From Vibrio vulnificus CMCP6 (GTDB lineage: Bacteria > Pseudomonadota > Gammaproteobacteria > Enterobacterales > Vibrionaceae), in the NCBI RefSeq assembly GCF_000039765.1, contig NC_004459.3, positions 360,001-392,000 on the forward strand: a DNA stretch of 32,000 nucleotides, read 5' to 3'. The position numbers and the translations under genes were made by a program. The notes below the pieces were generated by a model. The model made no database searches. It was not told the DNA's origin and saw only the letters and a list, made by a program, of their open reading frames with translations. Of the stretch, positions 2,316 to 22,994 are shown one piece after another (the stretch's first letter is position 1; each line of letters begins with the position of its first letter).

Positions 2316-2320
2316 AACCA

Positions 2321-2346: not shown

Positions 2347-2367
2347 TTCTCACACGCTAAAGTTGTC

Positions 2368-2419: not shown

Positions 2420-2432
2420 ACGAGGAATTGTT

Positions 2433-2690
2433 ATGTTGATAACATCACCAAGGCAGTTAGCAATATATCTGCGTGACGAAAGAAAACACGAGAATCTGTC
2501 GCAAGCAAAAGTTGCCGCCCCTGTTGGTCTTAAACAGGACACCATTTCTAAGTTTGAGGTTAATCCTGAAACTACAAGGATTCAGACGCTATTTCGCATC
2601 TTATCTTCTCTAAACCTTGAAATGCATATTGTTCAGAAAGGCGAAAGCATCTACTCGAAAGTTGATGATGATGGCGAAGAGAAATGGTGA
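2433..2690 (+). CDS. hipB: HipB-type XRE-family HTH antitoxin/repressor (orphan, no hipA)
   Basis: SPRQLA...LSQAKVAAPVGLKQDTISKFEVNPETTRIQTLFRILSSLNLEM aligns by eye along its length with E. coli HipB (SPTQLA...GIKQATISNFENNPDNTTLTTFFKILQSLELSM). This includes the acidic tail ending in a C-terminal Trp. Confidence 0.85.
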   Translation: MLITSPRQLAIYLRDERKHENLSQAKVAAPVGLKQDTISKFEVNPETTRIQTLFRILSSLNLEMHIVQKGESIYSKVDDDGEEKW

Positions 2691-2698: not shown

Positions 2699-2783
2699 AT
2701 TCCCACGCATGGGAATCCACCGAAGTCAGATGCTTAACGAAATCGAGTGCTGCTGGTATTGTAGCTCACAACTGGACAGAAGC
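2699..2783 (+). repeat. Solitary hairpin unit (ATTCCCACGCATGGGAAT) plus right half-unit plus trailer (TGTAGCTCACAACTGGACAGAAGC)
   Basis: The hairpin at 2699-2716 is identical to the array consensus. 2717-2759 is homologous to the array variable block (..cttaacgaaatcgagtgctgctgg..). 2760-2783 matches the trailer seen at 15281-15306 and 11946-11970. Confidence 0.7.
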
Positions 2784-2849
2784 AATTTAGGTTGGTTACG
2801 CTACCTTGGTTCTTTCAAATTTGCTTTACTAAGCCAAAAAACTAGGTAT

Positions 2850-2868
2850 CAAAAGGCAAGAACTGACC
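2850..2868. repeat. Left 19-bp inverted repeat of cassette 1 (CAAAAGGCAAGAACTGACC)
   Basis: Its reverse complement matches 4697-4715 at 17/19 and 15169-15187 at 17/19. It matches 12059-12077 in the same orientation at 17/19. Confidence 0.6.
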
Positions 2869-2917
2869 GTTTTGGTCTATTAATACCTTTGGTTCTAGTT
2901 AATAGCTTATTGATTTA

Positions 2918-2941
2918 GTTTGTGTTTGTGTTTGTGTTTGT
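2918..2941. repeat. Hexanucleotide microsatellite (GTTTGT)x4
   Basis: Read directly. Lies about 70 nt upstream of the 3013 start. Confidence 0.9.
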
Positions 2942-3012
2942 GACCCACTGTGATGCATATTAACCCCTATAAGTGGTAATCTAAGCAAATTTACTCATAT
3001 AGGATTTATAAA

Positions 3013-3861
3013 ATGGAACAAGTTATCCTCCGCTATGATGGCGAAGCTCTCGTTGAACACAGCATGAACCTTAAATTGGTTGCTGACTCTCTACAAGGTA
3101 TTGAAGCCTTAGTAAGAGAAGTCCATGAAGAAATGGGCGGCAAAGAAGAAGAGCTGAACCTTCAAATCAAAGGAGGATTCCAAAAGGGTTCATTTGAGTT
3201 TTTATTTACCTTAGGGCAGCAACTACCTGATGGTATTGAGTTACTTAAGATTATCGGCTTCGGTAGTCCAATAGCTGCTGGATCGTTGATGGCTTACCTT
3301 GAATGGTTGAAAGGTAAGAAAATCCAAAAAATAACTATGACAGAAGAAGGTGACTGCAAAATAGTGACCGAAGATGGTGAAGATAAAGTTGCACCTAGTT
3401 ACATGCGCCCTCTCCTAGCTTCAACATCTGTCCGTGGTGCTTTCAGCAAAATCATCAGTAAACCACTACGTGATAGTGGTATAGAAGTCTTCGAGGCTCT
3501 ATCTACAGAAGAAAAGAAAGCTGACCGAACTCAATATGTATCAGTAACTACAGCCAACGAGAAAAACTATCGAGCTAAAAATACTACTGTAATTGACTTG
3601 ATAGATAATAAACCGATGGATGAGAAGGTAATAACATTCCTTACGGTACATAAAGATAAAGACACTAGTTGGCGTGTTGAAGACGTTGATGGCATCACCT
3701 ACACCGTGAAAATGGAAGATGAAGACTTCCTAGCTAACTTCCGCAAGGGTAACGAGCCAGATATTTTTGTGAACGCATACGCAGTTGAGATTGTCGAAAA
3801 AGAAAATACGATAAATCTGGACAAAACCTATTCTATAGTTAAAGTATACGCTCCTGAATAG
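3013..3861 (+). CDS. Hypothetical cytoplasmic protein (282 aa), first gene of a 3-gene operon
   Basis: Long ORF with an AGGA RBS context (ataggatttataaaATG). No motif I can assign. Confidence 0.65.
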   Translation: MEQVILRYDGEALVEHSMNLKLVADSLQGIEALVREVHEEMGGKEEELNLQIKGGFQKGSFEFLFTLGQQLPDGIELLKIIGFGSPIAAGSLMAYLEWLKGKKIQKITMTEEGDCKIVTEDGEDKVAPSYMRPLLASTSVRGAFSKIISKPLRDSGIEVFEALSTEEKKADRTQYVSVTTANEKNYRAKNTTVIDLIDNKPMDEKVITFLTVHKDKDTSWRVEDVDGITYTVKMEDEDFLANFRKGNEPDIFVNAYAVEIVEKENTINLDKTYSIVKVYAPE

Positions 3862-3880
3862 GCGTGTATTTCTTAACCAA

Positions 3881-4141
3881 ATGGAGAATGTGATGGGTGA
3901 AGTAGCCAAAATACTACTACTCATAGTAGCTTGTGCGCCCATCCTTTACTGGCTGAGCAAGATAGTGACTTCATTCGTCCTATACAAGCTATCCCCACCT
4001 CACTACGTAGCTATGCAGTTCGAGGACAAAGAAGGGAATGTACGTAATAGCAAGGTAGTTGATGTCTCTAAGGATAAAAACTTCTATGCCGTGGTTGCTC
4101 AGATCTACAAAAACAGCCAGCACAAGGAAGGGAATACTTAG
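3881..4141 (+). CDS. Small membrane protein (single N-terminal TM); true start probably ATG 3893
   Basis: GGAGA RBS lies 6 nt before ATG 3893. Hydrophobic segment ILLLIVACAPILYWLSKIVTSFVLY. Its stop overlaps the next start (TAGTG). Confidence 0.5.
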   Translation: MENVMGEVAKILLLIVACAPILYWLSKIVTSFVLYKLSPPHYVAMQFEDKEGNVRNSKVVDVSKDKNFYAVVAQIYKNSQHKEGNT

Positions 4142-4629
4142 TGAGTAATAAGAACTCTATTGCGGCACCAACATTTGCGAATGGTAGCGCTGCGATTTTA
4201 GGTGGTTTTGCTCTGGAGTTTGCCGCTGGTCTTGAACAACCTCTATTGAAAGAGTACGCAATCTACGTTGTTCCTGCCTTTACGATATTTCTTGCTTATA
4301 TCTTCAATATCCTTGCTAGCTTGAGTGCTATGTCAGTTACCGAATTGGTGGCTATTTGGTCTTCTCGAGGCTACTTCAAAGAGCTTAAAGACCAAATAAG
4401 TGACCCTCTAACTTCAGAGGCAAGGCGAGAAGAAAAGCGTAAGGAATATGAAGAAGCTCTTGACGCGAAGTTAGCTATGAAGAAAGGCAAGTTTTCGATC
4501 TTCAACGCAGCCAACCAAAGAGCTACTAAACAGGCAGAAAAAGCACTTCAGCACGCACCAACACAGACTGATCGGGAAGCCCTCGAGAAGCAAACTAAAG
4601 AATTCCAGCAAACCACCCCCCAAGAATAA
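4141..4629 (+). CDS. Membrane protein (2-3 TM segments plus charged C-terminal tail), GTG start
   Basis: The GTG start overlaps the upstream stop, suggesting translational coupling. Hydrophobic stretches AAILGGFALEFAAG and IYVVPAFTIFLAYIFNILASL. A strong terminator follows. Confidence 0.55.
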   Translation: MSNKNSIAAPTFANGSAAILGGFALEFAAGLEQPLLKEYAIYVVPAFTIFLAYIFNILASLSAMSVTELVAIWSSRGYFKELKDQISDPLTSEARREEKRKEYEEALDAKLAMKKGKFSIFNAANQRATKQAEKALQHAPTQTDREALEKQTKEFQQTTPQE

Positions 4630-4633
4630 CAAG

Positions 4634-4657
4634 AGCGGTCTGTACGACCGCTTTTTT
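4634..4657 (+). terminator. Rho-independent terminator of the 3-gene operon
   Basis: AGCGGTC-TGTAC-GACCGCT followed by TTTTTT. Confidence 0.75.
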
Positions 4658-4696
4658 AATACTCTCGAGCACAATAAACGTATGAAAAACAAGAAG

Positions 4697-4715
4697 GGTC
4701 AGGTTTTGCCTTTTG
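4697..4715. repeat. Right 19-bp inverted repeat of cassette 1 (GGTCAGGTTTTGCCTTTTG)
   Basis: Inverted partner of 2850-2868 (17/19). Same orientation as 15169-15187 (17/19). Confidence 0.6.
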
Positions 4716-4731
4716 CCTTTTGCCTTTTGCC
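4704..4731. repeat. Heptanucleotide microsatellite (TTTTGCC)x4
   Basis: Read directly. It expands the outer end of the 19-bp repeat. Confidence 0.9.
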
Positions 4732-4795
4732 TGTCATTAGCTCTAGTATCATAAAAGTAGATCGTCAAGGCTTGCTATTTCTTCGACGCATACAT

Positions 4796-4847
4796 TTTGG
4801 GGCAAAGTGTGCTAGAACTGTTCGCGTGACACGCCTCTGGGCAGAAG
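4796..4847 (+). repeat. Junction-family copy a: core TTTGGGGCAAAG plus trailer-like CTCTGGGCAGAAG
   Basis: The 12-mer is identical to 7282-7293. The GGGGCAAAG-TGTG context resembles 20528-20541. The trailer resembles 15291-15303. Confidence 0.5.
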
Positions 4848-4953
4848 TAAGTTAAGATTGTCCCTTAAGCCATTGGCTTCGAATAAACTACGTTCAGGCG
4901 AATCCATATTGAAGGCTTTTCTAATGCGCCGTTGGTATGCATTCAGTGTAACA

Positions 4954-6660
4954 TCACGTGTGGTCAGTCTCAGAACTGACTAAATCTTGAACAATCTCTT
5001 TAAGCATACTTAGTCTGCCTGCATCTAATGCATTTTCATGGTGTGCTTTCAACACGTTGATAGGCTTTAAATCGCTCCGTTTTTTATCAGGTTTAGGTAT
5101 TTGGAGGAAACCTTCTAAATCAGACTCAAACTGATGCAATCCTGTTGTACAAGGTGTCTTGGCTCCTTGGATGATGCCATTCCAAACTTTATGATTAATG
5201 AACTTATTTACAGCGTCATTATCTCCATCAAACAGTACAGAGTGTTTAATACCTATTACATTGAGTAAGTGCATAAATCGATGCAAATTAAATTTACCTA
5301 CACAATCTAAGATGTATACGCGATGTTCTCTCAAAAACTCCCAATCACTATCAGCTAAGCAATCAAGCAATACTTTTTCAGATGGTCCTTCACACAATAG
5401 TACATGTCTTGCAAAGAAGAGATTTGAACGCTCTGTATCTAGCCACAAAAAGTACTTTATCGCTTCATCAGCAGCTCTTACTTCCTCATCAAATTCGGGA
5501 GACTTATCTTCCCCATGAACTCTTGCAGCAACTAGGTTGTTTGATAGTATTTCCTTTAGAGAACGCTCTGTTATTTGATAAGCTGTTGTAGAATCTGTTT
5601 CTTTGAAAAGTCGAGAAATAGAGTTTATTGAGTCGATTGACTTGCTAACGAAAACTGATGAATGCGTCGAAACTAATACTTGTTGCTGCTCGTCTGAAAC
5701 TAGTTTATTTAAGCTTCGGTAAAGCACATCTTGCTGTGCGGGATGTAAAAATGCCTCAGGCTCTTCAAATAGTATCAATGAAAAATCGGGGTTAAAATCT
5801 TTTTTGGTCGATTTGGTTTTAGCACTATATTTAGCTGAAAGCTTGATGAGTGTATATATCAAATGGCGTTGTAAACCTTGGCCAAATGACGAAATATCCA
5901 CTCGCTCACCAAGGTTACTATCTTCAATATGTGGCTTTAACAAGCTCTTGACTAGGTCATCAGTGTTAATAGGGGACACTTCAATATCAAAACCTACACC
6001 CCATTGTTTCAGTTCACTATTTATTTCAGATTTAACACCATCAATTGAAAATCCGCTAATTTCTTCCTGTTTAAATACTTTATTGAATTCGTTAAATGCG
6101 GTTGTTAACGTCTTAAATGACTCACTACTAGCAATAGCCTTTTTCATCACCACGTTAACCATATTTCTAAATGGTGAAGGTCCTGTAGTTTTCATGCTAT
6201 CTTCGACCTTACTAACTGCTGGTATGTAGATAACACTACCTAGCTTAGATGTGGATACGTTAGCAGCACCGTAAAACAAATTGTTAGATAACTGCCCGTT
6301 CTCATAAGCATAAATATTTGATTGTTTAGACTGAACTAATCCATGCTCTGACTGAAGATATTTACGTACCTTAAGAACTCGATCCGCTGAACGGTACTCT
6401 TCCTTCAGAGAGTCTTGTTCTTCTGGTGTAGTTAAGAAAGAAAGTTCAATCCAACTCTCTTGATCATCAGTTGAAAATTTGGGGAAATCTCTCTTAGTAT
6501 CGAACTTTAAGCCACTTTCTTCATAAAATACGCGCAACGCCGACAAAAGGTTTGTTTTTCCTGAGTTATTTTCTCCAACAATCAAAGAATAAGGGTTAAC
6601 CTCAATAGCAATATCCTTGATTGAACGGAAATTATGCACTTCAATTTTTTTGAGTTTCAT
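4954..6660 (-). CDS. OLD-family nuclease (ABC/AAA15-type ATPase plus C-terminal TOPRIM), stand-alone class-1-like
   Basis: N-terminus MKLKKIEVHNFRSIKD...IVGENNSGKTNLL (Walker A). LILFEEPEAFLHP (Walker B/D-loop). C-terminal TOPRIM signatures VLLCEGPSEKVLL and LFDGDND. Its 568 aa is similar in length to P2 Old/GajA. No UvrD-like GajB neighbour. Confidence 0.85.
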   Translation of the reverse strand: MKLKKIEVHNFRSIKDIAIEVNPYSLIVGENNSGKTNLLSALRVFYEESGLKFDTKRDFPKFSTDDQESWIELSFLTTPEEQDSLKEEYRSADRVLKVRKYLQSEHGLVQSKQSNIYAYENGQLSNNLFYGAANVSTSKLGSVIYIPAVSKVEDSMKTTGPSPFRNMVNVVMKKAIASSESFKTLTTAFNEFNKVFKQEEISGFSIDGVKSEINSELKQWGVGFDIEVSPINTDDLVKSLLKPHIEDSNLGERVDISSFGQGLQRHLIYTLIKLSAKYSAKTKSTKKDFNPDFSLILFEEPEAFLHPAQQDVLYRSLNKLVSDEQQQVLVSTHSSVFVSKSIDSINSISRLFKETDSTTAYQITERSLKEILSNNLVAARVHGEDKSPEFDEEVRAADEAIKYFLWLDTERSNLFFARHVLLCEGPSEKVLLDCLADSDWEFLREHRVYILDCVGKFNLHRFMHLLNVIGIKHSVLFDGDNDAVNKFINHKVWNGIIQGAKTPCTTGLHQFESDLEGFLQIPKPDKKRSDLKPINVLKAHHENALDAGRLSMLKEIVQDLVSSETDHT

Positions 6661-6772
6661 ATTAGTTATCTGCCACTTCTATAAAAATTTCCAAATGCCG
6701 CACTCTAAACCAATTCTGGGGTATCTATTCAGTAAGCCGACTTCAGGTATCAAATAATAAATTATCGCCACG

Positions 6773-7117
6773 TTAGACACTTTCAGCGGCTGATCTAACT
6801 GCTTTAACGATTGAAAATGGTCTTATCTCGTCATTGGAGAAATGAACCTTATAACAAGGATGTGATGCCCATACACCATTATTTTGACGTTTCTCGTAGG
6901 CAACACTGAAAGCTGTAATCAATCGACCATTTAGCTCATAACCAGGTGAGTTATCACAGTATCTTACGTATACATCTTTGAGTGCTTCATATAGCTCACC
7001 TGCCTGAATTAATCCGCTTGATAGCTGTTCTTCCTTCTGCTCGGTGAAATAGCTAATAGCGTCGCCTTGTTTCTTAAATAGCTTCCCTGCAATTGTGACT
7101 GATTTTGCTTTGCCCAT
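6773..7117 (-). CDS. Small hypothetical protein (114 aa) upstream of the OLD nuclease
   Basis: ORF with a GGATAA-type RBS context. Same strand as the OLD gene, 112 nt upstream of it. The pattern is loosely reminiscent of DUF3223/DCL-type small domains, but I cannot support that. Confidence 0.55.
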   Translation of the reverse strand: MGKAKSVTIAGKLFKKQGDAISYFTEQKEEQLSSGLIQAGELYEALKDVYVRYCDNSPGYELNGRLITAFSVAYEKRQNNGVWASHPCYKVHFSNDEIRPFSIVKAVRSAAESV

Positions 7118-7281
7118 TAATATTATCCTTTAGATCTAGTTGTTGACTTATCTTACGCCCCTGACTTGAACCCAACTCTTTTTGTCCGCTTATAAGTTAG
7201 CTTAATATTCAACTAAATACATAATGAGGCGTTAGATAAACTTGGTCAAACTGAAGTGACTAGAAATGTGTCCTAAACAGG

Positions 7282-7392
7282 TTTGGGGCAAAGCTATGTT
7301 TGCCGTGATTGGCATGCTTTGTGATTGGCATGCCTAGCGAAATTGAGTGGCGCTGATTTTAAGCTACTTGCCCTATTCCCACGAATGGAAAT
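7282..7392 (+). repeat. Junction-family copy b: leader plus one (degenerate) hairpin, abutting the IS remnant
   Basis: 7282-7374 aligns with the array leader 20527-20601 at about 80 percent by eye, plus an internal ~17-nt duplication (TGATTGGCATGC twice). Hairpin 7375-7392 is ATTCCCA-CGAA-TGGAAAT (two changes). Confidence 0.7.
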
Positions 7393-7975
7393 TAACTCTT
7401 TACGCCTCTAGGCTTACCTCGTGACTCAAATGCCATAGAGAGTGCCTTTCCTGTCATCTTGCTATCGGGAGAGACTGACATCGCCCAAACAATTGGCTTT
7501 CTCGCGAATAGGTCGATGACAACAGCAAGATACATCCAGCGCTGACCTGTCCAGACATACGTCACGTCTCCTACCCAGACTTGGTTGGGAGCAGTAACGG
7601 CAAACTGTCGAGATAGATGGTTTGGGATCTCTACATGCTCTTGTGATGTTTTTCGATAACGGTGCTTCAATGTTTGGCAGCTTACCAGGCCTAATAATTT
7701 CATCACCTTAGAAGCTCGATAACGTGCCAGTTTTACACCTTGGGCCGTTACCATGTCGGCAATGCTTCTCGCACCCGCAGAGCCATTGCTTGCCGTGTGA
7801 ACTTCTTTAATGAGACTCTTGAGTTTCACCAGCTCAGGGGAAACACGTTTGGGGCGACAACGCCAGTATTTGTAGCTGCTACGCTGGACACTGAACACAT
7901 GACACAAGGTGGTTACACTAAAGCTCTGCCTGAGTTTCTCGATTATCGAGAGCTGTTCAGCGAGTCCGACATCAA
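7392..7975 (-). pseudogene. IS3-family transposase OrfB, disrupted and truncated
   Basis: The -1 frame reads [16 protein letters not shown] then a stop. The expected continuation IIEKLRQSFSVTTLCHVFSVQRSSYKYW is in another frame, which indicates an extra 1-nt indel. The first DDE Asp region (VWVGDVTYV) is present. The ORF ends at ..ESRGKPRGVKS, before the HSDQG second-Asp motif. Confidence 0.8.
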
Positions 7976-8253
7976 GAGAGCTGTAGCTTTTTTAATATTT
8001 CATTGTGCTCTTCAAGGCGTGCAAGTTTCTTCTTCAGCTCACGTATCTCAATTTGCTCTGGTGTCATAGGTGCGGCTTGGGGAGTGACTCCCTTTCTTTC
8101 TTGCTTAAGCTGCCTTACCCACTTGTCCATTGTCGATTTACCGACACCCATGGCTTTTGCAGCTTCAACAACGGTGTAGTTTTGGTCGAGCACAAGCTGT
8201 GCTGCTTCGAGTTTAAATTCTGCACTGAAAGTGCGTCTGGTACGCTTGGTCAT
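7972..8253 (-). CDS. IS3-family transposase OrfA (HTH)
   Basis: [53 protein letters not shown]...[24 protein letters not shown] closely parallels IS911 OrfA. An AGGTGA RBS precedes ATG 8253. Confidence 0.8.
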
Positions 8254-8345
8254 AGCTTCACCTGTCATGCTATGAGGTGCATCTTAACACCTCTAATCAG
8301 GTGGCCAAATTCACTATGTCACTACAAAATACAGTAAAAAAACCA

Positions 8346-11920: not shown

Positions 11921-12030
11921 CAAAGGTGTATTTTCTGTGAGCTGCGTTAGTACACCTTTGGACAGAAATGAGTTTTGGAAAATCAAACATTAGCAAATGA
12001 CTAATAACTTCAGGTATGACAAATAGCTAA
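11921..12030 (+). repeat. Junction-family copy e: CAAAGGTGT.. core remnant plus trailer (CCTTTGGACAGAAATG..)
   Basis: 11921-11941 resembles 20531-20552. 11946-12030 aligns with 15281-15365 at roughly three-quarters identity by eye. Confidence 0.55.
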
Positions 12031-12058
12031 ACATGATAGAAAAACTGCCACCAAAAAG

Positions 12059-12077
12059 CAAAAGACAAGACCTGACC
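12059..12077. repeat. Left 19-bp inverted repeat of cassette 2 (CAAAAGACAAGACCTGACC)
   Basis: Perfect reverse complement of 15169-15187. Confidence 0.85.
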
Positions 12078-12182
12078 CTATTGGTTTTTACTCTGGAATA
12101 TGCAACCACATTGAGTTAAATTATTTTATATGAATCAGATGTATAGTAAGCTACAAAAAATTACAACAGATAAAACGGAAGC

Positions 12183-12845
12183 ATGTCAGAGAATACCCCC
12201 GCTAGTCCTAGCATCTACAAGGCAATCTTTTTTGTAAGCTTAATCACATGCTCACTTTTTTGCATTGTGCTACTGGCGCTACTCGTATGTTTACCTTCCC
12301 CATCACTGCTATCTTACCTTGGCTATGCCGACTCAGTTGCACTTGCTAATGCTGATAATATCAACGATCCATTCACATCCCACATTATTGGTGAATTAGT
12401 CAAGAGTGGGACATTAATCAGCCTTAAAGATGTCTGGTCATTTCAAACTGGCTTTTATCAAACAATAATCACCGTCCTTATAGCTATTAACGGTTTGATC
12501 GCTGCAATATCCGTGATTTACATCAAAAGCACATCAGAAGAAAAAGCTGAAGAAATCACAAAAAAATATATGCATAGTGATACGTTCAATCACGTACTCA
12601 ATACAAAAGTCGAGAATGAAGCAGAATCACGGCTTCGAGTTGTGCAAAGCGATCTAAATGCTACTGCTAGTGATTTTGAAAGGTCATTAGGAACTGTCGA
12701 TGAAGCTCTAGAACGATTGCAACTTTTAGAAACAGAAAACCAAAGCCTACGCCAACAAATAAAGGTCATTTCGGAACGTGTAGCTCAGTTAGATATATCC
12801 GAATCTGAAGGCAAAGAATCCCTACTTGTCAAAAAGGAACAATAG
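12183..12845 (+). CDS. Membrane protein with two TM segments and a C-terminal coiled coil
   Basis: Hydrophobic IFFVSLITCSLFCIVLLALLVCL and IITVLIAINGLIAAISVIYI. The C-terminus is heptad-like (LERLQLLETENQSLRQQIKVISERV). Its stop abuts the next start (TAGATG). Confidence 0.65.
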   Translation: MSENTPASPSIYKAIFFVSLITCSLFCIVLLALLVCLPSPSLLSYLGYADSVALANADNINDPFTSHIIGELVKSGTLISLKDVWSFQTGFYQTIITVLIAINGLIAAISVIYIKSTSEEKAEEITKKYMHSDTFNHVLNTKVENEAESRLRVVQSDLNATASDFERSLGTVDEALERLQLLETENQSLRQQIKVISERVAQLDISESEGKESLLVKKEQ

Positions 12846-13388
12846 ATGGCATTCGTTAGAAAATCTGGTAGAAAAACTCAAACAACTACAGAATTTGAAG
12901 ATTTGTCTACACCTGAACATCTAATAGCACTTGCTGAAGACAAGGGCTTAGAAACTGACCCTGTCAATGTATCTGAATTAGCCAAACATCTAGGGATTAC
13001 CGTTAGATACGAGCCAATGCAAGATGAAGAATCAGGCTCGCTTAAAAAGGAGAAAAAGTCAGGTAGTTGGGTAATGACCGTTAATTCATTACACCATCCG
13101 CATAGGCAAAGGTTTACAATAGCCCACGAAATTGCACATCGAATTCGTCATGCTGCTAACAATGATTGCTTTGAAGATACAACTTTCTTTAGAAATGGGG
13201 AAACAAACTGGATGGAAGCTGAGGCCAATGATTTTGCAGCCTCACTATTGATGCCTAAAGATGCTTTCGATAATTTCATAGCCAACGTATCATCAAAGGT
13301 TGAAGATGTTGCTATGCACTTCCAAGTATCTTCTCATGCAGTTCGAATTAGAGCCAAAGTTCTTGGTTATGACGGACATAATCTATGA
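12846..13388 (+). CDS. ImmA/IrrE-family (M78) zinc metallopeptidase, P4 Gop-like
   Basis: HExxH motif in FTIAHEIAHRIRH, plus the downstream family signature EAEANDFAASLLMP. Confidence 0.85.
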   Translation: MAFVRKSGRKTQTTTEFEDLSTPEHLIALAEDKGLETDPVNVSELAKHLGITVRYEPMQDEESGSLKKEKKSGSWVMTVNSLHHPHRQRFTIAHEIAHRIRHAANNDCFEDTTFFRNGETNWMEAEANDFAASLLMPKDAFDNFIANVSSKVEDVAMHFQVSSHAVRIRAKVLGYDGHNL

Positions 13389-14459
13389 GTGAATTTGTCT
13401 ATTTCCCGATCATAAAAACTAGAGATGGCGAACTCCGCTGTTTTGAACACATCAATGATGATGATTTTTCAAAGATTTTGCCAATTTACGAACTAACCAA
13501 ATCGAGAAAAACAAAAAAAGCACCTGATGGTGATATATATCGCCGTATGAAGCAAATTGCTGAAATTCAGAAGAAGCGACCATTTATACTTGATTTGAGT
13601 ACAAACGAAAAATATATCAACCCTCAGATTGAGCAATTGTTATCAGAACACAACGGCTTTAAAGAGTGGCAGTATTTTCTGTTTGATCTACATTGCGACT
13701 TAAACATCATCCCGATGGTTCACTTGTATGAAGATGATGACGGTAAGTTCGAAGACGTTGAAGAATTCGTAAGAAGTGCTTCTGCAAGAACTAATTGTCT
13801 TGCGGTTAGATTGCCATATGACTTAAGTGACGAAGAAGTTGAATATTATTTAACCCCTATAACAAGAAACCTGAACGAAAATTGTAAACTCTACGTAATT
13901 CTAGATGCTGAATTCGTAAGAAAGAAAGCCATTAATGATGTAGTTGATACTTTCCTTGAAGCATGCTCGGGTACGGAGTCTTTCGCTGATAAAATAGAAG
14001 ACGTTGTAATGCTCTGCTCTAGTTTCCCATCGAATGTTGCTCAAACTGGTGGCGAAGCATATTGCAGGTGAGTTTAGAATCTGTGAAGAAGATATCTATC
14101 AGGGTATTAGTGAAGAGTTCCCAATCAAATATGGCGACTACGTTTCAATTAACACCGAACAAATTGAAATGAAAGGCGGTACTTTTGTACCTAGGATTGA
14201 TATTGCATCTTTAGACGGAAAATCGTTCACCTATAAAAGATACCGTCGAAACAATGGTGGGTATGTTAGAGCCGCAGAGCACACCGTCAGAGATACAACA
14301 TCATATAAGCCGCTTGGAGTGTGGGCTGATGAAGAGATCCAAGCAGCAGCAAATGATAATCCATCAGGTATTAGCCCTGCATTTTGGATATCAGTTCGCA
14401 TGAACTACTACATTAAAAGTCGAATTTTACTCAGAGAATCAGACGATTCTTCGTTTTAG
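13385..14459 (+). pseudogene. Beta-protein family (phage P4 Beta-like, PF14350-type) gene split by a frameshift near 14050-14070
   Basis: The N-terminus FVYFPIIKTRDGELRCFEHI is the typical Beta-family start (YxPILKxxxGExxAL). ORF 13385-14071 and ORF 14034-14459 are adjacent frames that join as ..CSSFPSNVAQTGGEA / IAGEFRICEEDIY..YGDY.. The combined ~358 aa fits the family length. An ATGA overlap links it to the peptidase gene. Confidence 0.65.
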
Positions 14460-15062
14460 TAATGACGGAGCTTTCTTTGTAATTGTGTATATGTCATCCG
14501 ACGTCAAATGAAGGGTGGTTTCTTGTTTCAACAGTTTTGAAGCTACCCCATATCTTTCATTAAAATCGTTTCTTGATAACTGTCTTAATGACTCTAACGT
14601 ATTGTTTTTTGATACGTAGTCGCATAATTCGTGCTTCGATCTTAAATTGCTTCCTTTCGATAGAGCACTCAACTTTTGCACACTTAACGCACTGGCTAAC
14701 ACTCTTTTATCGTGTCGTTTGAACTGTTTTGATTGGCGAACATGAGTAATTTTGCCATTTTCGACCAGAAAGATGCCAACATCTCTTGAAATCGTTGCTC
14801 GTACTTCAGCCAGATTGCTTGGTTCACACACAACAAAGCAAAAATCAAAAAACTTTTTATAACTTTCAATTTGATAATTCAACCTAGATACAGTGTCACG
14901 AGCACCTTTTATTTCAAAGGCAGTTAAGTAGCCATCATCCAGCAATGCTAGATCCGCTCGTCTTTCACCAAATTGAAATGAAAATTCAGAACCAACAACA
15001 AAATTTTCATACTTTTCTAGAAAGTACCTTACTATTAGTTTTTTAATTTCTAGCTCTGTCAT
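14439..15062 (-). CDS. PD-(D/E)xK-type nuclease-like protein (sce7726/MmcB-like)
   Basis: ERRADLALLDDGYLTAFEIKGARDTVSRLNYQIESYKKFFDFCFVV shows the D...E-x-K restriction-endonuclease-fold core, followed by the DT..RL..Q...Y motif I associate with that family. Convergent with the Beta gene, overlapping its 3' end by 21 nt. Confidence 0.65.
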   Translation of the reverse strand: MTELEIKKLIVRYFLEKYENFVVGSEFSFQFGERRADLALLDDGYLTAFEIKGARDTVSRLNYQIESYKKFFDFCFVVCEPSNLAEVRATISRDVGIFLVENGKITHVRQSKQFKRHDKRVLASALSVQKLSALSKGSNLRSKHELCDYVSKNNTLESLRQLSRNDFNERYGVASKLLKQETTLHLTSDDIYTITKKAPSLLKRRIV

Positions 15063-15076
15063 CTATGCCACTTTAA

Positions 15077-15092
15077 CTGTATATACAAACAG
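15077..15092. promoter_or_regulatory. LexA (SOS) box CTGTATATACAAACAG upstream of the minus-strand PD-(D/E)xK gene
   Basis: CTGT-N8-ACAG with an AT-rich spacer, 15-30 nt upstream of ATG 15062. Confidence 0.7.
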
Positions 15093-15168
15093 CATTATCG
15101 TATATCACTAGCCTATCAGCAAGCATATTGTTGACACCTTTTTTATTGTTATTTCTCCCGAACTTCGA

Positions 15169-15187
15169 GGTCAGGTCTTGTCTTTTG
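15169..15187. repeat. Right 19-bp inverted repeat of cassette 2 (GGTCAGGTCTTGTCTTTTG)
   Basis: Perfect reverse complement of 12059-12077. Confidence 0.85.
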
Positions 15188-15254
15188 ACTCTTATTACTT
15201 TTTGTATATCAAAGTTGACTGAGTATCATTGTGTGATTTGAAGGCGTAACTAAT

Positions 15255-15365
15255 TTTGGGGCATTTTCGTGTTTCATGCCCTGTAGCACACTCTTGGACA
15301 GATACGTGTTTCGGGTAATCGAATATTAGCAATTCACGAATAACTATAAGTATGGAAAGTGCTTT
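15255..15365 (+). repeat. Junction-family copy c: core TTTGGGGCA plus trailer (CTGTAGCACACTCTTGGACAGATACG..)
   Basis: The core is shared with 4796, 7282 and 20527. The trailer is homologous to 11946-12030 and 2760-2783. Confidence 0.55.
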
Positions 15366-15639
15366 AGTTCAGTATCCAGTATGGATGGTGTATATCACCG
15401 CCGCTGGGTGAAGCAAAAAAATTAAACAAACAATCGGGTGGATATCTGTTGACGGCGCATCAACGAGTTGACATGGTCGAGAGTTGTAGACGGTATTGAA
15501 ACGAGAACAAATAGACATTGAAGGTGACACTGCCTTTGAGCGATTCTAAGCACTCGCAGGATAATTGTACCTAGAGGATAGGTCTGCCGCGTCTTTCACT
15601 ATATTTGCGACAGACCCCATCTAACGACTTAAAATATCA

Positions 15640-18201
15640 CTAAATGATGCGGCATTTGCCATTTTCTAAGTCGTTTATGAATTTTTTGTACTTACCAACT
15701 TCGGTAGTATCATTTTCAATGTATAGAACGGAAATTAACTCATTTCTTTTATATTTTCGTTCATGAATCACCTGTTTAATAGGTGTATTTTTAATTATGA
15801 TACCTTTAACGTTTTTTCGTATATTGTCTACTTCTTTCATATTAAGCCTAGCATGAGCAACGTTCTCAACGGTTATTTTATCTAGTAGATTATCGAGTTC
15901 TTTAGCTAGTGATACCTTTTTATCAGTATTTTTTGAACGAATCATTCTAATGTACATTATTCTTATAAGAATGACCTTAGTTGAGGTTGATGAGAGAACA
16001 TCTAGGCTATGAACTAAGTCTGATAGCGATATTGCTTGTTCATCTTTACCTTCATCATATAGTCTTATTATTTCACGTTCAAAAATCTCAGCATCGATTA
16101 TTTCTGGTGTTGAGCTATAATTTTGAATACCTTGAAAGTATAAAGACCTTGCTTCTTCATTCTGTGGTTCCAAATATGTAGAAAACTTATTGCACAAAAA
16201 TTCAAATTCAGGGTCTATAATTTCTCTATCTAATGATTTAATAAAGTTTAACGTAGATATCCACCTTTCCTTTTTAGACTTATTTTGTAAATCAAGCACA
16301 AGACACATGATTAAGTTGTGGAAAAAGTCAATATTTAGTGATTCTGATTGTTCAATTATTTTTTGTATACATTTTAGATATTCCAAAAATCTATCATCAT
16401 CAAGACATTGAGATAGGTTTATAAAAGATTTTATATGAGTGTCTTTCAATAGGTATGGGTTGGAATTTTTATTGGAAGTGTGGATTTTTTCACTCTCATT
16501 AACCTTTAGGAATATAGAATCCCAAAATAAATCACAGTCTTCATCTTTTTCATATCGCATAATAGAAGGAACTATAACATCCAGTCCAACAGCATACTGA
16601 CATGCACTATCTATATGCCGTTCAGAATTCATATTATCTAGCTCTTGAAGAATCATACTTGCAATATATAATACTTCCATAATTGAATTCTTTATATCAA
16701 TTAAAGGTTCATTTTCAACTGATATAGATAATTCTTGAATTATTGATTTACAAAGTCGTATTATTTCATCGGTATGATTATTATTAGACTTTAACAGAGC
16801 TAGACAATAATCTACTGTTGCTCGATACTTCAATGAATCTAGCTCTTCGCCACTAACTAAAATTGATAGCTCTTCGATAGCTGGCTCTATAGAGTTTGTT
16901 TTAAAAAAACTAAACCCAAGCATCCAAGAAACTTCTCTTTGATCTATTTTTTCTACGTCTTTTAATAACTTGCAATACTTAATAGTATCAGTATATTTAG
17001 CATTAAATAGCGTACAAGCAGCTAGCTTGTAACGAATAAAATCCAACATTTCATCGTTGATTTCAGACTCAATTAATGTCAGAAACTGCTTTTCAGCGGC
17101 TATATATTCTTTTTTATTGAATAGTTCTAGTGTTGAGTCAATAGATACATAACTATTTAGACTTAGACTACTTAACCAGGTTTCAGATAGACTTGCTTCA
17201 ACTACTCTATTTTTAAATGCTACAGATTCGTCAGCTTCAGATGGAGCAGCAATGCCCGCTAAATATAACTTAGACCTTATGTGATCGGATACTGGTTTAT
17301 TGTAGTGCATTGAAAATAAACCACTTTGTAAATCTTTATCAGCAGATGCAAGAACTCTTATATGATCTATTGGTGGTCGATCATAATTTGAAAGATATAG
17401 GTCTTTTATTACAGAGTTAATTGAATCAACATCAATATTTATACCAGCTTTTACCTTGTCTTCTATAGTAGATAAAACTTCCCATGACATTCTAGGATTC
17501 CCCTGAATCCAATAATAAATACGCTCAATGACAATATCGTTCAGTTCTAATTTTGACTTCTCGACAAATAAACGAAACTCGCTAAGGCTAAAATCAGTTA
17601 AGAATATTTTCTGACCAATGTTAAATGGTGATATAGATTTATCTTTTATTATCTCACTTGGTTCGGCAACACCAGATATTACATATGTTAAACGCTTTAA
17701 CTCTGGGAAGTTTACTCGCTCGAAATATACACTTCTAATATGTGCGAATATTTTATCAGAGTAATCTGATGAAGTAAGGGAATCAATTTCATCAAGGTTG
17801 ATAATTAGTTTTCCAGAAATTTTATTTAGTATCTTTCTTATTTCAAATCCATGTTCTTTATGTGATGGTATTTTTCTGTTGTTTCTTCTGTTTTCTATTT
17901 CTTCTTCTATATCTTCCAATTTCTCATAGTTAGATTCAATGATTGTGTCTATTATACTTCTAAAACACTCTCTTGCTGTATCAAAACGATTAGATAGATC
18001 TATATAAGCAAAGATATCATTCTCAGTTTCAAGTTTTCTTTTTGTATGGATTAATAAATTTGTTTTACCCATTTGTCTAGATACTAGTATGTATCCAGGT
18101 CTCCCCATATCATTGACTATTTGCTCAATCTGCCTATCTGCGTCTCGTTCTATATATAATTCTCTAGGAATTATTGTTTCTGATATTAATTTTTTAGTCA
18201 T
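15640..18201 (-). CDS. STAND-type ATPase with AAA_35-like N-terminal NTPase domain and long helical (TPR-like) C-terminal region, 853 aa
   Basis: GYILVSRQMGKTNLL (Walker A, Lys46). LIINLDEIDSL (Walker B). SPFNIGQKIFLTDFSLSEF and YYWIQGNPRMS match the PF14516 AAA-like signature (RQMGKTSL / SPFNIG / L.DF..E / GhPyL) as I remember it. The remaining ~600 aa is Leu/Ile/Glu/Lys-rich and repeat-like. Confidence 0.8.
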   Translation of the reverse strand: MTKKLISETIIPRELYIERDADRQIEQIVNDMGRPGYILVSRQMGKTNLLIHTKRKLETENDIFAYIDLSNRFDTARECFRSIIDTIIESNYEKLEDIEEEIENRRNNRKIPSHKEHGFEIRKILNKISGKLIINLDEIDSLTSSDYSDKIFAHIRSVYFERVNFPELKRLTYVISGVAEPSEIIKDKSISPFNIGQKIFLTDFSLSEFRLFVEKSKLELNDIVIERIYYWIQGNPRMSWEVLSTIEDKVKAGINIDVDSINSVIKDLYLSNYDRPPIDHIRVLASADKDLQSGLFSMHYNKPVSDHIRSKLYLAGIAAPSEADESVAFKNRVVEASLSETWLSSLSLNSYVSIDSTLELFNKKEYIAAEKQFLTLIESEINDEMLDFIRYKLAACTLFNAKYTDTIKYCKLLKDVEKIDQREVSWMLGFSFFKTNSIEPAIEELSILVSGEELDSLKYRATVDYCLALLKSNNNHTDEIIRLCKSIIQELSISVENEPLIDIKNSIMEVLYIASMILQELDNMNSERHIDSACQYAVGLDVIVPSIMRYEKDEDCDLFWDSIFLKVNESEKIHTSNKNSNPYLLKDTHIKSFINLSQCLDDDRFLEYLKCIQKIIEQSESLNIDFFHNLIMCLVLDLQNKSKKERWISTLNFIKSLDREIIDPEFEFLCNKFSTYLEPQNEEARSLYFQGIQNYSSTPEIIDAEIFEREIIRLYDEGKDEQAISLSDLVHSLDVLSSTSTKVILIRIMYIRMIRSKNTDKKVSLAKELDNLLDKITVENVAHARLNMKEVDNIRKNVKGIIIKNTPIKQVIHERKYKRNELISVLYIENDTTEVGKYKKFINDLENGKCRII

Positions 18202-19721
18202 GATCTAGCCTTTAAAATGTCTAATGACTCACGATAGTGGCTTTTTAACTTCCTAGGTGAACCTTCTATAAGTTCAATATCAACATTAGGTAGGTTATCA
18301 ATATTCAAGTGTCTGTTTATTATATTGTCTAATTCAATTAGATCTTCTTTATTCCAGTAACCAAGAGAGAATATACTAAAGTTGTCTGATATCTTTTCAA
18401 ACTCCGTTCCAACTAGAGAGTCAGGCTCAAATATAGAAGATAATACTAGTTTGAAATTTTTAATTTCTTTTAATTTTACCAATATAGAATAGATGCATTG
18501 CGAAAATTCTTTAAACGCACAATGATCACTGATTGGTATTTCCTCAATGAATAAAACAAAACTATCAGATTTACATTTGTCTCGTATGATTAACTCTATA
18601 TTATTTAAAATTACAGATATTCGTTCAGACTCATTGATTATGACATTTTCATCGAGATCGTAGGCAATACTTGTAAACATTTGTTGAATGTTTTCATTTA
18701 TAGATGTACCTAAAGAAATATATTGAAAGTCAACTCCGTTTTTGAATAACAGTCTTTGAATAATAGCAGTTTTTCCAACACCAGATGGGCCACAAATCCA
18801 TAGTCCTGATAATCTGAATTTATTTAAAACTATTTGGTCTACATCTCTATGTAGGTAGAAATTTTCTTGATTAGGGGTATATAAATCGAAAAGGACATCT
18901 TCCTTGGAGTCATCTGTTTTTGCTGATGAACTTGTTAACTTTATTTTGCAGAAGTCATTTCTTTCAATAAAACCCCAGAGTGCTTTGTGTGATTGGCTAT
19001 CTTCATTTTCTGGCTTTACGATAGATGAATGATCTGTTCCTGCTATAAGTTTAGCTTTACCAAAGTAGCGTGCGGCTGACTCCTTGGATACAACTCGGTG
19101 TTTTGAATGATTTAACAAGGTCAAATGAAAAGGAGACCTATTTTCATAGCACTCTAAACCGACAATATCAAGCTTAGATGATTGCAATAACTCTTTAAAT
19201 CTACCATCAAGATCATCTAATAATGCACTTCCCCAAGCTAGTTCTTGAGCTAGTTGGTTTTTGAATCGTTTTGCAATCCAACCGAAGCTAGATGCCATCC
19301 GTGAGCCAAAAGAAGGAGATGCATATAGTGCCAATCCAATTTTCTTTCCAACAAATTTGTCTGATTTTGACTCTAAAATATACCTTGCAATTATTCCACC
19401 AGTACTGTGAGTTACGAAAATGATATTACTTTTACTTAGAGCTGGACTTCTCATGTGTTTGTCGGTTTGGCTAATGTGATCCCAAACTTCGTCTGAGCAG
19501 TTTTGAACTCCATAATCATTTGAGTCTATTGATGTATAAAAGTTGGCTAGAAATATATCAATTCCATTAAATCTAGGATCGCTTGCGATTAAGTCAGGCC
19601 AGTAGCGCTGATTCTTATCGTTGAACCAGCATTTTTTACTACTAGAAAATAATCCATGGATAAATATTATGACAGTGTTACTGTTTGAGTACCTTAACCA
19701 ACCATTTTCTTGGACGTTCAA
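18198..19721 (-). CDS. Alpha/beta-hydrolase (DUF676/lipase-like) fused to a P-loop NTPase, 507 aa, TTG start
   Basis: VIIFIHGL (oxyanion region). FVTHSTGG nucleophile elbow (Ser106). GTDHSSIV (His231). Then GPSGVGKT (Walker A, 311-318) and FVLFIEEI (Walker B-like). The stop overlaps the next gene's start (ATGA at 18198-18201). Confidence 0.8.
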   Translation of the reverse strand: MNVQENGWLRYSNSNTVIIFIHGLFSSSKKCWFNDKNQRYWPDLIASDPRFNGIDIFLANFYTSIDSNDYGVQNCSDEVWDHISQTDKHMRSPALSKSNIIFVTHSTGGIIARYILESKSDKFVGKKIGLALYASPSFGSRMASSFGWIAKRFKNQLAQELAWGSALLDDLDGRFKELLQSSKLDIVGLECYENRSPFHLTLLNHSKHRVVSKESAARYFGKAKLIAGTDHSSIVKPENEDSQSHKALWGFIERNDFCKIKLTSSSAKTDDSKEDVLFDLYTPNQENFYLHRDVDQIVLNKFRLSGLWICGPSGVGKTAIIQRLLFKNGVDFQYISLGTSINENIQQMFTSIAYDLDENVIINESERISVILNNIELIIRDKCKSDSFVLFIEEIPISDHCAFKEFSQCIYSILVKLKEIKNFKLVLSSIFEPDSLVGTEFEKISDNFSIFSLGYWNKEDLIELDNIINRHLNIDNLPNVDIELIEGSPRKLKSHYRESLDILKARS

Positions 19722-19846
19722 AATATGCCTTAAAGCTTTGATTTTTAATTATGATACAGCGCTCGCATCAATAAAATCAATAAACAGTGTCAGTCCTGTT
19801 TAACAATTCTTAAATTTCATTATTTAAGGAAAAATGCGTTAGGTCA

Positions 19847-20345
19847 TCAAGATTCCACTCTAATCGCTCTATGTAGGGCTGTAACACCCCTGTCAAAATC
19901 CTTACCATATCTATCAAAAACAATTGAGCCATTCTCACGCCCAACATTGCCCTGTACAAAGCAGCTCTCAACGGTGGAGTCTTGCTTTAAGTAGCTGATA
20001 AAATTATGTAAAAAAAATAAAAGTCATGCCCCTTGTCAAAACTAAGATTTGATTTAAATAGAGCAAACCAATTCGAAGCGTTACCACCTAATCCATTTGT
20101 TTTCTGCATAGAGTAGTTCTGGGAAAATTCCCTCTTCATTTGATGCCACATAATCTAAAAAGCCTAATTCGATTAGCTTTGAATGGATTGGGACTAAACG
20201 TCTAGCTGAATCATTTTCTAGTCTCTGGCCTTCAAGAGTGTCAGAGAAGCTAAGACAGCAAATATTGTCGTCTTTTTGTATGTCTGTACAGTGATGCTGT
20301 GCTAGCTTATTGAGTCTTGCACCAGAGAGTTCTCTCTGAAATTAG
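19847..20345 (-). pseudogene. Tyrosine recombinase (phage-type integrase) remnant, C-terminal catalytic domain only, at least 2 frameshifts
   Basis: Minus-strand frames read SGARLNKLAQHHCTDI..SARRLVPIHSKLIELGFLDYV..IFPELLY, then GGNASNWFALFKSNLSFDKGH, then FLHNFISYLKQDSTVESCFVQGNVGRENGSIVFDRYGKDF. This is the R..(VPIH)..HxxR..Y integrase pattern, with stops between segments and substitutions at catalytic positions (HNF instead of RHTF; GR instead of GH). Confidence 0.75.
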
Positions 20346-20526
20346 ATTTTATAGTCTTTATTATTGCAGGTAAGTAGATAAGTACTCGACAAGTAAACTG
20401 AAGGTTTTCGGAATCTCTTTTGCGCCCCCTAAGATAAAGATACTTTTAACCGTCGATTTCGAATAACTTTTTGTAGGGCAATTGCACATTAACAAGATAT
20501 TAATGAGTAATAGCACTAAGCAGAAA

Positions 20527-21691
20527 TGGGGCAAAGGTGTGTTTGCTATGATCGGCATGCTTTGCGAAATTAAGTGGCACTGATTTGAGATTAACTACCC
20601 CATTCCCACGCATGGGAATCAGTCAGAATCGGCATACTCAATGAAACCGAGAGTCGCTGATGTGAAGTTGACTCCCCCATTCCCATGCATGGGAATCAAC
20701 CTAGATCGGCATCGTCAGTGGAAACCTGTGCCGCTGATGTGAAGTTGACTACTCCATTCCCACGTATGGGAACCAACCTAGATCGTTATGGTCAACGAAA
20801 TCCAGTGCCGCTGATTTGAAGTTGGCTACTCCATTCCCACGCATGGGAATCAGTCAGAATCGGCAGGTCAATAAAATCGAGAGCCGCTGATGTGAAGTTG
20901 ACTACCCTATTCCCACGCATGGGAATCAGTCAGAATCGACAGGTCAATGAAATCGAGAGCCGCTGATGTGAAGTTGACTCCCCCATTCCCATGCATGGGA
21001 ATCAACCTAGATCGGCATCGTCAGTGGAAACCTGTGCCGCTGATGTGAAGTTGACTACTCCATTCCCACGTATGGGAATCAACCTAGATCGTTATGGTCA
21101 ACGAAATCCAGTGCCGCTGATTTGAAGTTGGCTACTCCATTCCCACGCATGGGAATCAGTCAGAATCGGCAGGTCAATAAAATCGAGAGCCGCTGATGTG
21201 AAGTTGACTACCCTATTCCCACGCATGGGAATCAACCTAGATCGGTATCGTCAGTGAAAACCAGTGCCACTGATTTGAGTTAGTTACTCTATTCCCACGC
21301 ATGGGAATCAGTCAGAATCGACAGGTCAATGAAATCGAGAGCCGCTGATGTGAAGTTGACTCCCCCATTCCCATGCATGGGAATCAACCTAGATCGGCAT
21401 CGTCAGTGAAAACCAGTGCCACTGATTTGAAGTTGGCTACTCCATTCCCACGCATGGGAATCAGTCAGAATCGGCAGGTCAATGAAATCGAGAGTCGCTG
21501 ATGTGAAGTTGACTACCCCATTCCCACGCATGGGAATCAGCCATGTTCGGCATACTCAATGAAATCCAGTGCCGCTGATGTGAAGTTGACTCCCCCATTC
21601 TCACGCATGGGAATCAACCTAGATCGTTATGGTTAACGAAATCAAGTGCCGCTGATTTGAAGTTAGCTGCTCTATTCCCACGTATGGGATT
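20527..21691 (+). repeat. Leader (20527-20601) plus tandem array of 15 hairpin-bearing 76-77 bp units
   Basis: Hairpins ATTCCCA-YGYA-TGGGAAT start at 20602, 20679, 20756, 20833, 20909, 20985, 21062, 21139, 21215, 21291, 21367, 21444, 21520, 21597 and 21674. The conserved block is CGCTGATKTGAAGTTGRCT. 20679-20928 is repeated at 20985-21234 with one mismatch. Confidence 0.95.
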
Positions 21692-22697: not shown

Positions 22698-22827
22698 ACT
22701 ATGTTATAAAAAAGTAAAAACGAATAAAACTCACCTTATTTAAGGCATTAACATTTCGTATAAGTAACGCAATATCAGTTGAGATCACTTCCGATTTTAG
22801 GAATGGCAATTACAGCTAGCTAGTTCA

Positions 22828-22845
22828 TTCCCATGCATGGGAATG
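22828..22845. repeat. Solitary hairpin ATTCCCATGCATGGGAAT with left half-unit only
   Basis: Identical to the array B-type hairpin. The left flank ccgattttag..gctagctagttc loosely matches the unit's ctgatttgaagttggctactcc. The right flank GGCTTATTC resembles the array's terminal flank TGCTTTATTC (21692). Confidence 0.75.
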
Positions 22846-22994
22846 GCTTATTCAATATGTGTCGGTTTGTATGTGCGAAACAGAGCCAAAACCTAAACAT
22901 TAACCCGAAACAGAAACTTAAGGTCACTAGGACTGTAACTTCCTTCTAGCGCACGGCTCAGAAACAGTATTCACAAGCCTATGTTTAGAAAACA

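Follow-up and report, generated by a model that had tools for sequence, protein, structure and literature searches.

Why should two perfect inverted repeats of 19 bp bracket a four-gene segment that encodes no recombinase? The question is raised by a locus of Vibrio vulnificus CMCP6, which we analyzed within a stretch of 32,000 nucleotides (contig NC_004459.3, forward-strand positions 360,001 to 392,000; below, the window, numbered from its first base). The left repeat, CAAAAGACAAGACCTGACC, occupies positions 12059-12077 on the (+) strand, and a sequence search of the window places its exact reverse complement at 15169-15187 on the (-) strand, precisely as reported in a first-pass annotation made from the letters alone. 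Two further observations of that annotation hold as well. In a family search, no open reading frame (ORF) enclosed by the repeats matched a recombinase, transposase or invertase family, and the flanks of the 19-mers (..CAAAAAG on the left, ACTCTT.. on the right) contain no direct repeat that could represent a target-site duplication. The pair is not the only one of its kind in the window, which holds four copies of the 19-mer at up to three mismatches, versus 0.01 expected from shuffled sequences; a second inverted pair, at 2850-2868 (+) and 4697-4715 (-), has two mismatches in each copy and three other ORFs between them. Comparison with other genomes shows that the four genes belong to a discrete mobile unit, cassette 3 (11959-15263, + strand), which extends beyond both repeats and is bounded by sites of a different type, and that the 19-mers are arms of an inverted repeat family of the repetitive extragenic palindromic type (REP, and its REPIN doublets), linked to genes of REP-associated tyrosine transposases (RAYTs).

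The evidence for a mobile unit comes from the places in which it is found. DNA of the cassette is 98.5-99.5% identical in ten places examined from 11953 or 11959 to 15263 or 15300 and nowhere else, the longer variant taking in a 31-bp mini segment and reaching about 15294-15300. The cassette occupies at least 11 unrelated contexts, its ends always read TGGACAR... and ...TTTGGGGCA, and in every comparison of contexts the homology ends 100 bp beyond the left 19-mer and 76 bp beyond the right one. The shared block thus overruns the 19-mers on both sides, and these are therefore subterminal, not terminal. In the window, the cassette resides in an island that adjoins smpB/ssrA and carries a P4-like integrase and a relaxase. 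Elsewhere it is found in recombinase-trio islands, in an SE-6283-like element inserted in bcp, in P4-integrase islands and in ordinary chromosomal DNA flanked by dnaE2 and a DUF2301 gene. Shewanella and Alteromonas each contribute a chromosomal copy with the same ends, at 90% and 85% identity, respectively, and two metagenome contigs provide further flanks. Homology with a V. alginolyticus plasmid stops at 11960, and a near-search of PLSDB with cassette 3 matched the umuC flank alone. The ImmA-like protein of the cassette is recorded in 131 blocks of the assembly collection. The occupancy of a given site also varies. Some strains carry cassette 3 at a umuC-proximal site where others have a different cassette starting with TGGACAT-AAATGAGTTT, and in two otherwise identical islands (L122 and L126) one cassette is swapped for another between identical junctions and flanks. 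Because it is found in unrelated contexts and displays both presence/absence and replacement polymorphism at one site, cassette 3 is a discrete, mobile and non-autonomous unit with exact boundaries. The first-pass proposal of a non-autonomous cassette mobilized in trans is accordingly right about a discrete module that occurs in many contexts and wrong in taking the 19-mers for its ends.

The actual ends are marked by a short site at each junction. Junction comparison defines a left core at 11949-11975 (+), composed of the half-site GTACACCTT, the 7-mer TGGACAG (11959-11965) and the half-site AAATGAGTTT, and a right core at 15244-15275 (+), composed of the half-site TAACTAATTT, the 7-mer TGGGGCA (15257-15263) and a target-type half-site, TTTTCGTGTTT. 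The layout [..CTCAY N2-3]-TGGRSMD-[AAA nTGAGTT] is common to 28 junctions, the 7-mer being TGGACA[GAT] where a cassette starts and TGGGGCA where one ends, and an imperfect dyad, TAACTCATTT-TGGRSMR-AAATGAGTTT, surrounds the 7-bp center. When the cassette ends are joined head to tail, the junction reads TAACTCATTT-TGG.ACAR-AAATGAGTTT and its 10-bp arms are complementary at nine of ten positions. The core sites at the two ends are in direct, not inverted, orientation and lie 100 and 76 bp outside the 19-mers, so the first-pass analogy with inverted recombination sites of the pdif kind is not supported in its original form. The point of exchange can be placed in or beside the invariant TGG for three reasons: the A or G that closes the starting 7-mer co-varies with a cassette-internal single-nucleotide polymorphism in three independent contexts; the 7-mer that follows the 31-bp mini segment varies with the downstream unit; and the target reads GAGGCAATTACGAGCTT in a relative of one host, versus TGGGGCAAAAGTGAGTTT when occupied. 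The junction has the form of a recombinase core site. Its dyad and the precision of the junctions fit a putative attachment site of the tyrosine-recombinase type. Single-strand folding of both cassette ends yielded nothing beyond shuffled controls (z -1.3 to +1.0).

Between each core and the nearest 19-mer lies an end module of the cassette frame, recognized by sequence comparison. The left module (11966-12058, +) contains motif M, AATAACTTCAGGTATGACAAA, at 12003-12023, and its first ~70 bp are common to cassettes that have no 19-mer arms. The right module (15188-15256, +) contains motif M as ATTACTTTTTGTATATCAAAG at 15194-15214. Motif M, about 20 bp long (ATAACTTTTnGTAT..CAAA), is present on both sides of the core, and end modules with and without arms are homologous. 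These modules also account for a 71-bp direct repeat of 76% identity outside the 19-mer pair (11948-12018 and 15284-15354), which is the left end module of cassette 3 plus that of the following unit, cassette 4. The latter opens with a core TGGACAG at 15295-15301, directly after the 31-bp mini segment (15264-15294, +), which is delimited by two consecutive cores and accompanies cassette 3 in some contexts and is absent in others. A second mini segment between consecutive cores, of 33 bp, is located at 4805-4837. Judging from their sequence, the mini segments look like empty or minimal cassettes.

What, then, are the 19-mers? The first-pass annotation had allowed for their occurring only at this locus; this is not so, and the motif is widespread across genomes. 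A scan with a degenerate 19-mer pattern over one genome per species, a biased sample, recovered at least 175 copies in at least 120 genome stretches. Bases beyond the pattern are conserved as well (among the copies listed, GG upstream in 119 and CC downstream in 129), and the copies are therefore homologous rather than chance matches. The exact variant of the window, an A-variant, occurs at least 24 times in other genomes. Among the matches listed, the hosts are chiefly Beta- and Gammaproteobacteria, and several contigs of one metagenome-assembled genome carry copies. Seven matches in viral contigs, all of them minor variants without the extended consensus or a RAYT gene, were judged to be chance. 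Other genomes contain tandem arrays of the 19-mer and at least 17 close (-)(+) doublets, with 3-142 bp spacing, that would fold as long hairpins; within the window, the arms are spaced by 1.8-7.3 kb and form no close doublets. In at least 23 loci, the 19-mer is accompanied by an IS200-like gene of ~250 aa (Pfam Y1_Tnp, E=3.7e-14; NCBIfam REP_Tyr_transpos, 85.5 bits versus a curated cutoff of 80), and wherever both sides are visible (L007, L023, L060, L078) this RAYT-type gene lies between (-)...(+) arms. No RAYT gene was found within the window. The 19-mer is thus repeated, mostly extragenic and conserved in consensus, and in other genomes it forms both hairpin doublets and inverted arms around a gene for a Y1 transposase of the HUH class, an organization known from REP/REPIN sequences and their RAYT genes (PMC5581495; background also in PMC3337134). 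The 19-mers of the window are arms of this REP/REPIN-type family. Rfam searches (the window at the gathering threshold, eight hairpin loci at E<=1) returned only spurious microRNA look-alikes, and a full-text literature search with the sequences of the 19-mer, the core and motif M returned nothing relevant.

Membership in a family tied to an IS200-like/RAYT transposase, with short doublets resembling miniature inverted-repeat transposable elements, brings up the possibility that the segment 12059-15187 is itself a non-autonomous transposable cassette, with the 19-mers as terminal inverted repeats and a transposase (e.g., a Y1 enzyme of the RAYT type) acting in trans. The pair is indeed found around three different cargos, and in other genomes (+)...(-) pairs surround small cargos such as HipBA. 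We nevertheless consider a transposon of this kind very improbable. The repeats are not the termini, since in all of the at least 11 contexts the shared block continues for 100 and 76 bp beyond them to the same core ends; no target duplication is found at the 19-mers, and the unit as a whole displays none beyond the TGG shared by the core. Compared with RAYT flanks, moreover, the arms are inside-out, with the CTGACC end facing the cargo, and in some copies they have decayed without loss of the cassette. The window, for its part, contains no RAYT.

The relationship of the arms to the cassette can be traced through homologues of its cargo. A Photobacterium damselae homologue (85%) matches 12119-15113 only, and one from Shewanella morhuae (75%) matches 12250-15129 only; both keep the promoter regions and a palindrome resembling an SOS box, and in both the arms and the cassette ends are absent. 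Arms and ends together are found with two other cargos, those of cassette 1 in the window and of metagenome contig L169. Cargo homologues that lack both arms and ends show that the arms are part of the cassette frame. In most of the family's cassettes, the ends are found and the arms are not. Among 12 distinct cassette copies, 6 of 38 arm positions vary, versus 33 of 387 other non-coding positions and 2-3% of coding ones, and no compensatory changes link the arm variants. A copy that is 98% identical (L170) has a 5-bp deletion in its (+) arm, and the Alteromonas arms have decayed to 15/19 and 14/19. Alignment of the (+) arm as an insertion relative to a V. harveyi homologue is ambiguous. We conclude that the arms are probably dispensable for present-day movement, although they may have a helper role.

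A stronger version of such a role would make the arms functional accessory sites, of arm type or architectural, which, in a circular or single-stranded form, would pair with each other or bind a protein and thereby expose the core to recombination, in the manner of folded attC sites or the arms of phage attP. Their placement is compatible with this: three cassettes have symmetrically placed arms, the right arm-to-core distance is 69 bp in two cassettes and 82 bp in the third (68 bp when two extra 7-bp repeats are discounted), the orientation in a circle would be that of hairpin doublets, and both arms are perfect in the Shewanella copy. Yet most cassettes of the family keep their ends without any arms, the arms are no less variable than other non-coding positions, with nothing compensatory, deletion and decay affect them in intact copies, and in the Shewanella copy the entire end regions are well conserved, not the arms alone. 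On balance, we regard functional accessory arms as rather unlikely. Position also invites two other interpretations. The repeats are inverted, and the arms lie 105-106 nt upstream of, and point at, the first codons (12183 and 15062) of the two outward-facing genes, as might be expected of an invertible segment, proposed in the first-pass annotation, or of operators for a shared regulator of two convergent transcription units. We give these ideas hardly any credence. All copies examined have the inner segment and the end modules in colinear order, with no inverted version among more than 20, and the cassette encodes no invertase. As for operators, the (-) arm of cassette 1 lies behind a terminator-like hairpin with no gene downstream, cargo homologues have conserved promoter regions and no arms, and a promoter/terminator scan, in itself uninformative, called no promoter-like site near the arms.

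The interpretation that we favor, and think reasonably probable, is that REP-type arms sit at the inner border of the end modules of ~100 bp that make up the frame and that the cassette moves by recombination at the core site. The moving unit would measure 3.3 kb, roughly ACAG-AAATGAG ... TAACTAATTT-TGG. It would be transferred through a circular form by conservative site-specific recombination at the dyad core (~10 bp - TGGRSMR - ~10 bp), with the exchange in or next to the invariant TGG and the recombinase supplied in trans. The predicted circular junction reads ...GGCGTAACTAATTT-TGG-ACAG-AAATGAGTTTTGG... and the predicted emptied site ...ACACCTT-TGG-GGCA-TTTTCGTG... Every insertion would re-create a usable site, so that arrays would pile up and cassettes would replace one another; arrays of cassettes and replacement at core sites are both observed. 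The circular intermediate and the part assigned to the arms are what we infer, as is the class of the recombinase, probably tyrosine. Upon circularization, the order would become (-) arm, right end module, core, left end module and (+) arm, with the arms ~70-90 bp on either side of the core and 166-176 bp apart, in the orientation of a REPIN doublet or of RAYT flanks. Topologically, the frame would then correspond to a REPIN-like hairpin element whose loop holds the attachment core, and it may descend from such an element, in which case the arms would be relics of the origin of the frame, or else weak architectural elements. A more far-reaching proposal, which we put forward tentatively and with considerable doubt, is that of an undescribed, integron-independent cassette system whose anti-phage modules spread through islands, SE/GInt elements, plasmids and chromosomes of hosts that range from Vibrionaceae, Shewanella and Alteromonas to E. 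coli and Salmonella. Its site would combine a compact TGGRSMR dyad with a conserved accessory motif; one subfamily would have co-opted a REPIN-like hairpin as its portable attachment unit, and new cassettes could arise when two such units flank a gene module and recombine core to core. Two REPIN-like units on either side of a module would explain why the 19-mers are subterminal and face inward.

Several observations weigh against core-site recombination by a trans-acting enzyme with the arms as bystanders. No recombinase tied to the core site was identified, and the neighboring recombinases differ from context to context. Neither a circular form nor an excision product was observed, and no close relative with an empty site was found; the 'empty' host available for comparison has a flanking protein cluster with 90% identity to the query protein, making the comparison suggestive and not decisive. 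A cargo-free arm-core-arm unit is absent among the 120 loci listed. Cassettes 1, 2 and 4 of the window were each seen in a single context, the exact proteins of cassettes 1 and 4 being found only there, and the cassette status of these three therefore rests on end anatomy. Finally, both arms of the Shewanella copy are intact (19/19) at 90% overall identity, and two of about eight cassettes have arms at both ends at similar distances, so that the arms may matter more than we have assumed.

The cargo of cassette 3 (12183-15062) was delineated from family matches and homologues and consists of four genes with promoter regions of their own at 12119-12182 and 15063-15113. They encode a 220-aa membrane/coiled-coil protein (12183-12845, an ORF), a Peptidase_M78/ImmA-like protein (an ImmA/CapP-like protease; 12846-13388), a Beta_protein (13385-14459) and, on the (-) strand, a P4 cII-like protein (14439-15062), the last three recognized by family matches. 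The Beta protein is split in the window: compared with the public record CBCSKP010000002.1, an extra C at 14058 divides the 357-aa protein into ORFs of 228 and 141 aa. In PADLOC, the cargo matches the models beta (E=3.9e-48) and cll (E=3.5e-20), and the same search gave no match to gop among the cargo proteins. The cargo is a predicted anti-phage module similar to Gop-beta-cII of P4-like satellites. It resembles the latter in its strong matches to the beta and cll models and differs in that gop is unmatched, the 220-aa membrane protein and the ImmA/CapP-like protease being present instead. Upstream of the cII-like gene, at 15077-15092, lies a palindrome, CTGTATATACAAACAG, that is kept in the Shewanella, Alteromonas, Photobacterium and V. 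harveyi homologues. Going by the known consensus CTGT-N8-ACAG, it resembles an SOS (LexA) box. Its conservation suggests that DNA damage induces the defence module.

The window contains three further cassettes. Cassette 1 (2773-4804, +) starts with the core TGGACAG (2773-2779) and ends with the core TGGGGCA (4798-4804); between its (+) arm at 2850-2868 and its (-) arm at 4697-4715 are three ORFs, including a PDC-S42 candidate. Three tandem copies of the 7-bp unit CCTTTTG, at 4709-4729, overlap the inner end of the (-) arm. Cassette 2 (4838-7290, +), with the ends TGGGCAG and TTTGGGGCA, encodes an Old-like nuclease and a 114-aa ORF and has no 19-mer arms. Cassette 4 (15295 to 20533) starts at the core TGGACAG and encodes AAA_35 and DUF676 proteins. 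No subterminal repeats were found in cassettes 2 and 4. Outside the window, the same right-end module, with motif M and the core, is located behind unrelated defence-type genes on plasmids of E. coli, Salmonella, Shigella, Proteus and Klebsiella, and it is found as well within an SE/GInt-like element in the umuC gene of E. coli. In one unrelated E. coli/Salmonella cassette, the arm deviates from the degenerate pattern at 4 of 19 positions, the core is kept and motif M of the right module is nearly identical, as judged by eye from aligned text without a count of positions.

Two additional loci carry related structures. In the chromosome of E. coli NCTC86 (L191, 656-10805), an SE/GInt-like element with a tyrosine recombinase and three further genes is inserted in umuC, with a shared 6-bp AATAAT/AATAAC junction. 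Its cargo comprises two cassettes of the same core-site family, one with AbiH and PIN genes and one encoding a 362-aa protein; an identical cassette is found in chromosomes and plasmids of 29 E. coli genomes. The Salmonella plasmid pSC138 (L189) is a related locus. In Shewanella mesophila (L164, 7870-8300), the sequence following a TTGGGGCA end recurs ~390 bp downstream behind a second TTGGGGCA, which points to either a small additional cassette or a target duplication. Within the window, 14.7 copies of a 77-bp unit (80% matches) form a tandem array from 20566 to 21689 that also has higher-order periods of 153 and 306 bp; the palindrome ATTCCCACGCATGGGAAT is present in each unit. Solo units are found at 2698-2773, 7292-7392 and 22809-22855; the first two of these, and the start of the array at ~20534, directly adjoin cassette ends. 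The array seems to be about 306 bp longer in the public record of this contig. The island next to smpB/ssrA in which the entire run of cassettes is contained (L132, 4250-9813, upstream; window 41-2690) encodes a P4-like integrase, AlpA, an H-NS-like protein and a MOB relaxase and is probably an integrative mobilizable element. An IS3 remnant is present at 7392-8330. In the distal part of the island, a ParE-like toxin ORF lies at 25258-25506 (Pfam E=3e-11), near several large ORFs (612 and 832 aa among them) with no family match.

The shuffling of defence systems between 'defence islands' is largely unexplained beyond integrons and the transfer of whole elements. Here, one multi-gene defence module is found, base for base, in at least five kinds of islands and in bare chromosome, with precise junctions and an end anatomy that recurs in unrelated cassettes, including those of enterobacterial conjugative plasmids. 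If a recombinase does act on the core in trans, this would represent a second general route of cassette exchange for immune genes, and the REP/RAYT link would provide a concrete case in which such repeats have become part of a mobile system of another kind. Topic searches of the literature, incomplete in coverage, yielded no account of cassettes of this type.

Among known systems, integron cassettes offer several parallels: they too encode no recombinase, have a single recombination site, are apparently circularizable, form arrays and are precisely swapped. They also often carry anti-phage genes (cf. 10.1101/2024.07.02.601686). The cassettes described here differ from them in having several genes, in both orientations and with promoters of their own, in forming arrays within many kinds of islands and plasmids, and in having a compact dyad of ~27 bp versus a folded attC of 60-140 bp. 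No array was found to adjoin an IntI gene, the search covering the window and, for 10 contexts, the DNA up to 10 kb away. As judged by eye, the junctions do not fit the attC consensus, G|TTRRRY / RYYYAAC. Boxes of an attC were rejected as candidates on the grounds that the base preceding TGGACAG varies (T, C, A), the right end reads ...TTTGGGGCA and the ends show no folding above background. The Xer-dependent pdif modules of Acinetobacter are similarly devoid of a recombinase and are exchanged between replicons by one supplied in trans. The end sites of our cassettes, by contrast, are direct repeats of one type, not inverted, and a pdif/Xer module was rejected for this reason and because the sites are unlike dif. 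The XerC-spacer-XerD arrangement of pdif modules, whose 28-bp sites (XerC-6bp-XerD) are inverted at the two ends, is recognizable in neither the 19-mer nor the core, and neither has a TTATGTTAAAT-like arm. Comparisons with the consensus sequences of attC, dif/Xer, the hix sites of Hin/Gin, the sfx sites of Rci and relaxase nic sites gave no convincing match and serve only as leads. Strand-biased circularizing integrative elements (SEs) have imperfect 19-bp inverted motifs (C and C') at their ends (PMC9345347), and cassettes of the core-site family reside in the cargo regions of SE/GInt-like elements of Vibrio (L125 and L128). The SE motifs, however, are terminal and of another sequence (CACCNNTACAC..TTTTAC in the E. 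coli element), unlike the subterminal 19-mers, and SEs encode their own tyrosine recombinases, whereas the cassette encodes none. With REP/REPIN-RAYT systems, the 19-mers share a short, conserved extragenic repeat, inverted hairpin doublets and inverted flanks of an IS200-like Y1 gene. The arms in the window are distinct in lying 3.1 kb apart, inside-out relative to a doublet and around a cargo, within another kind of mobile unit and without a RAYT nearby in the window. Moreover, whereas classical REPs are generally lineage-specific, this one 19-mer is common to several bacterial classes.

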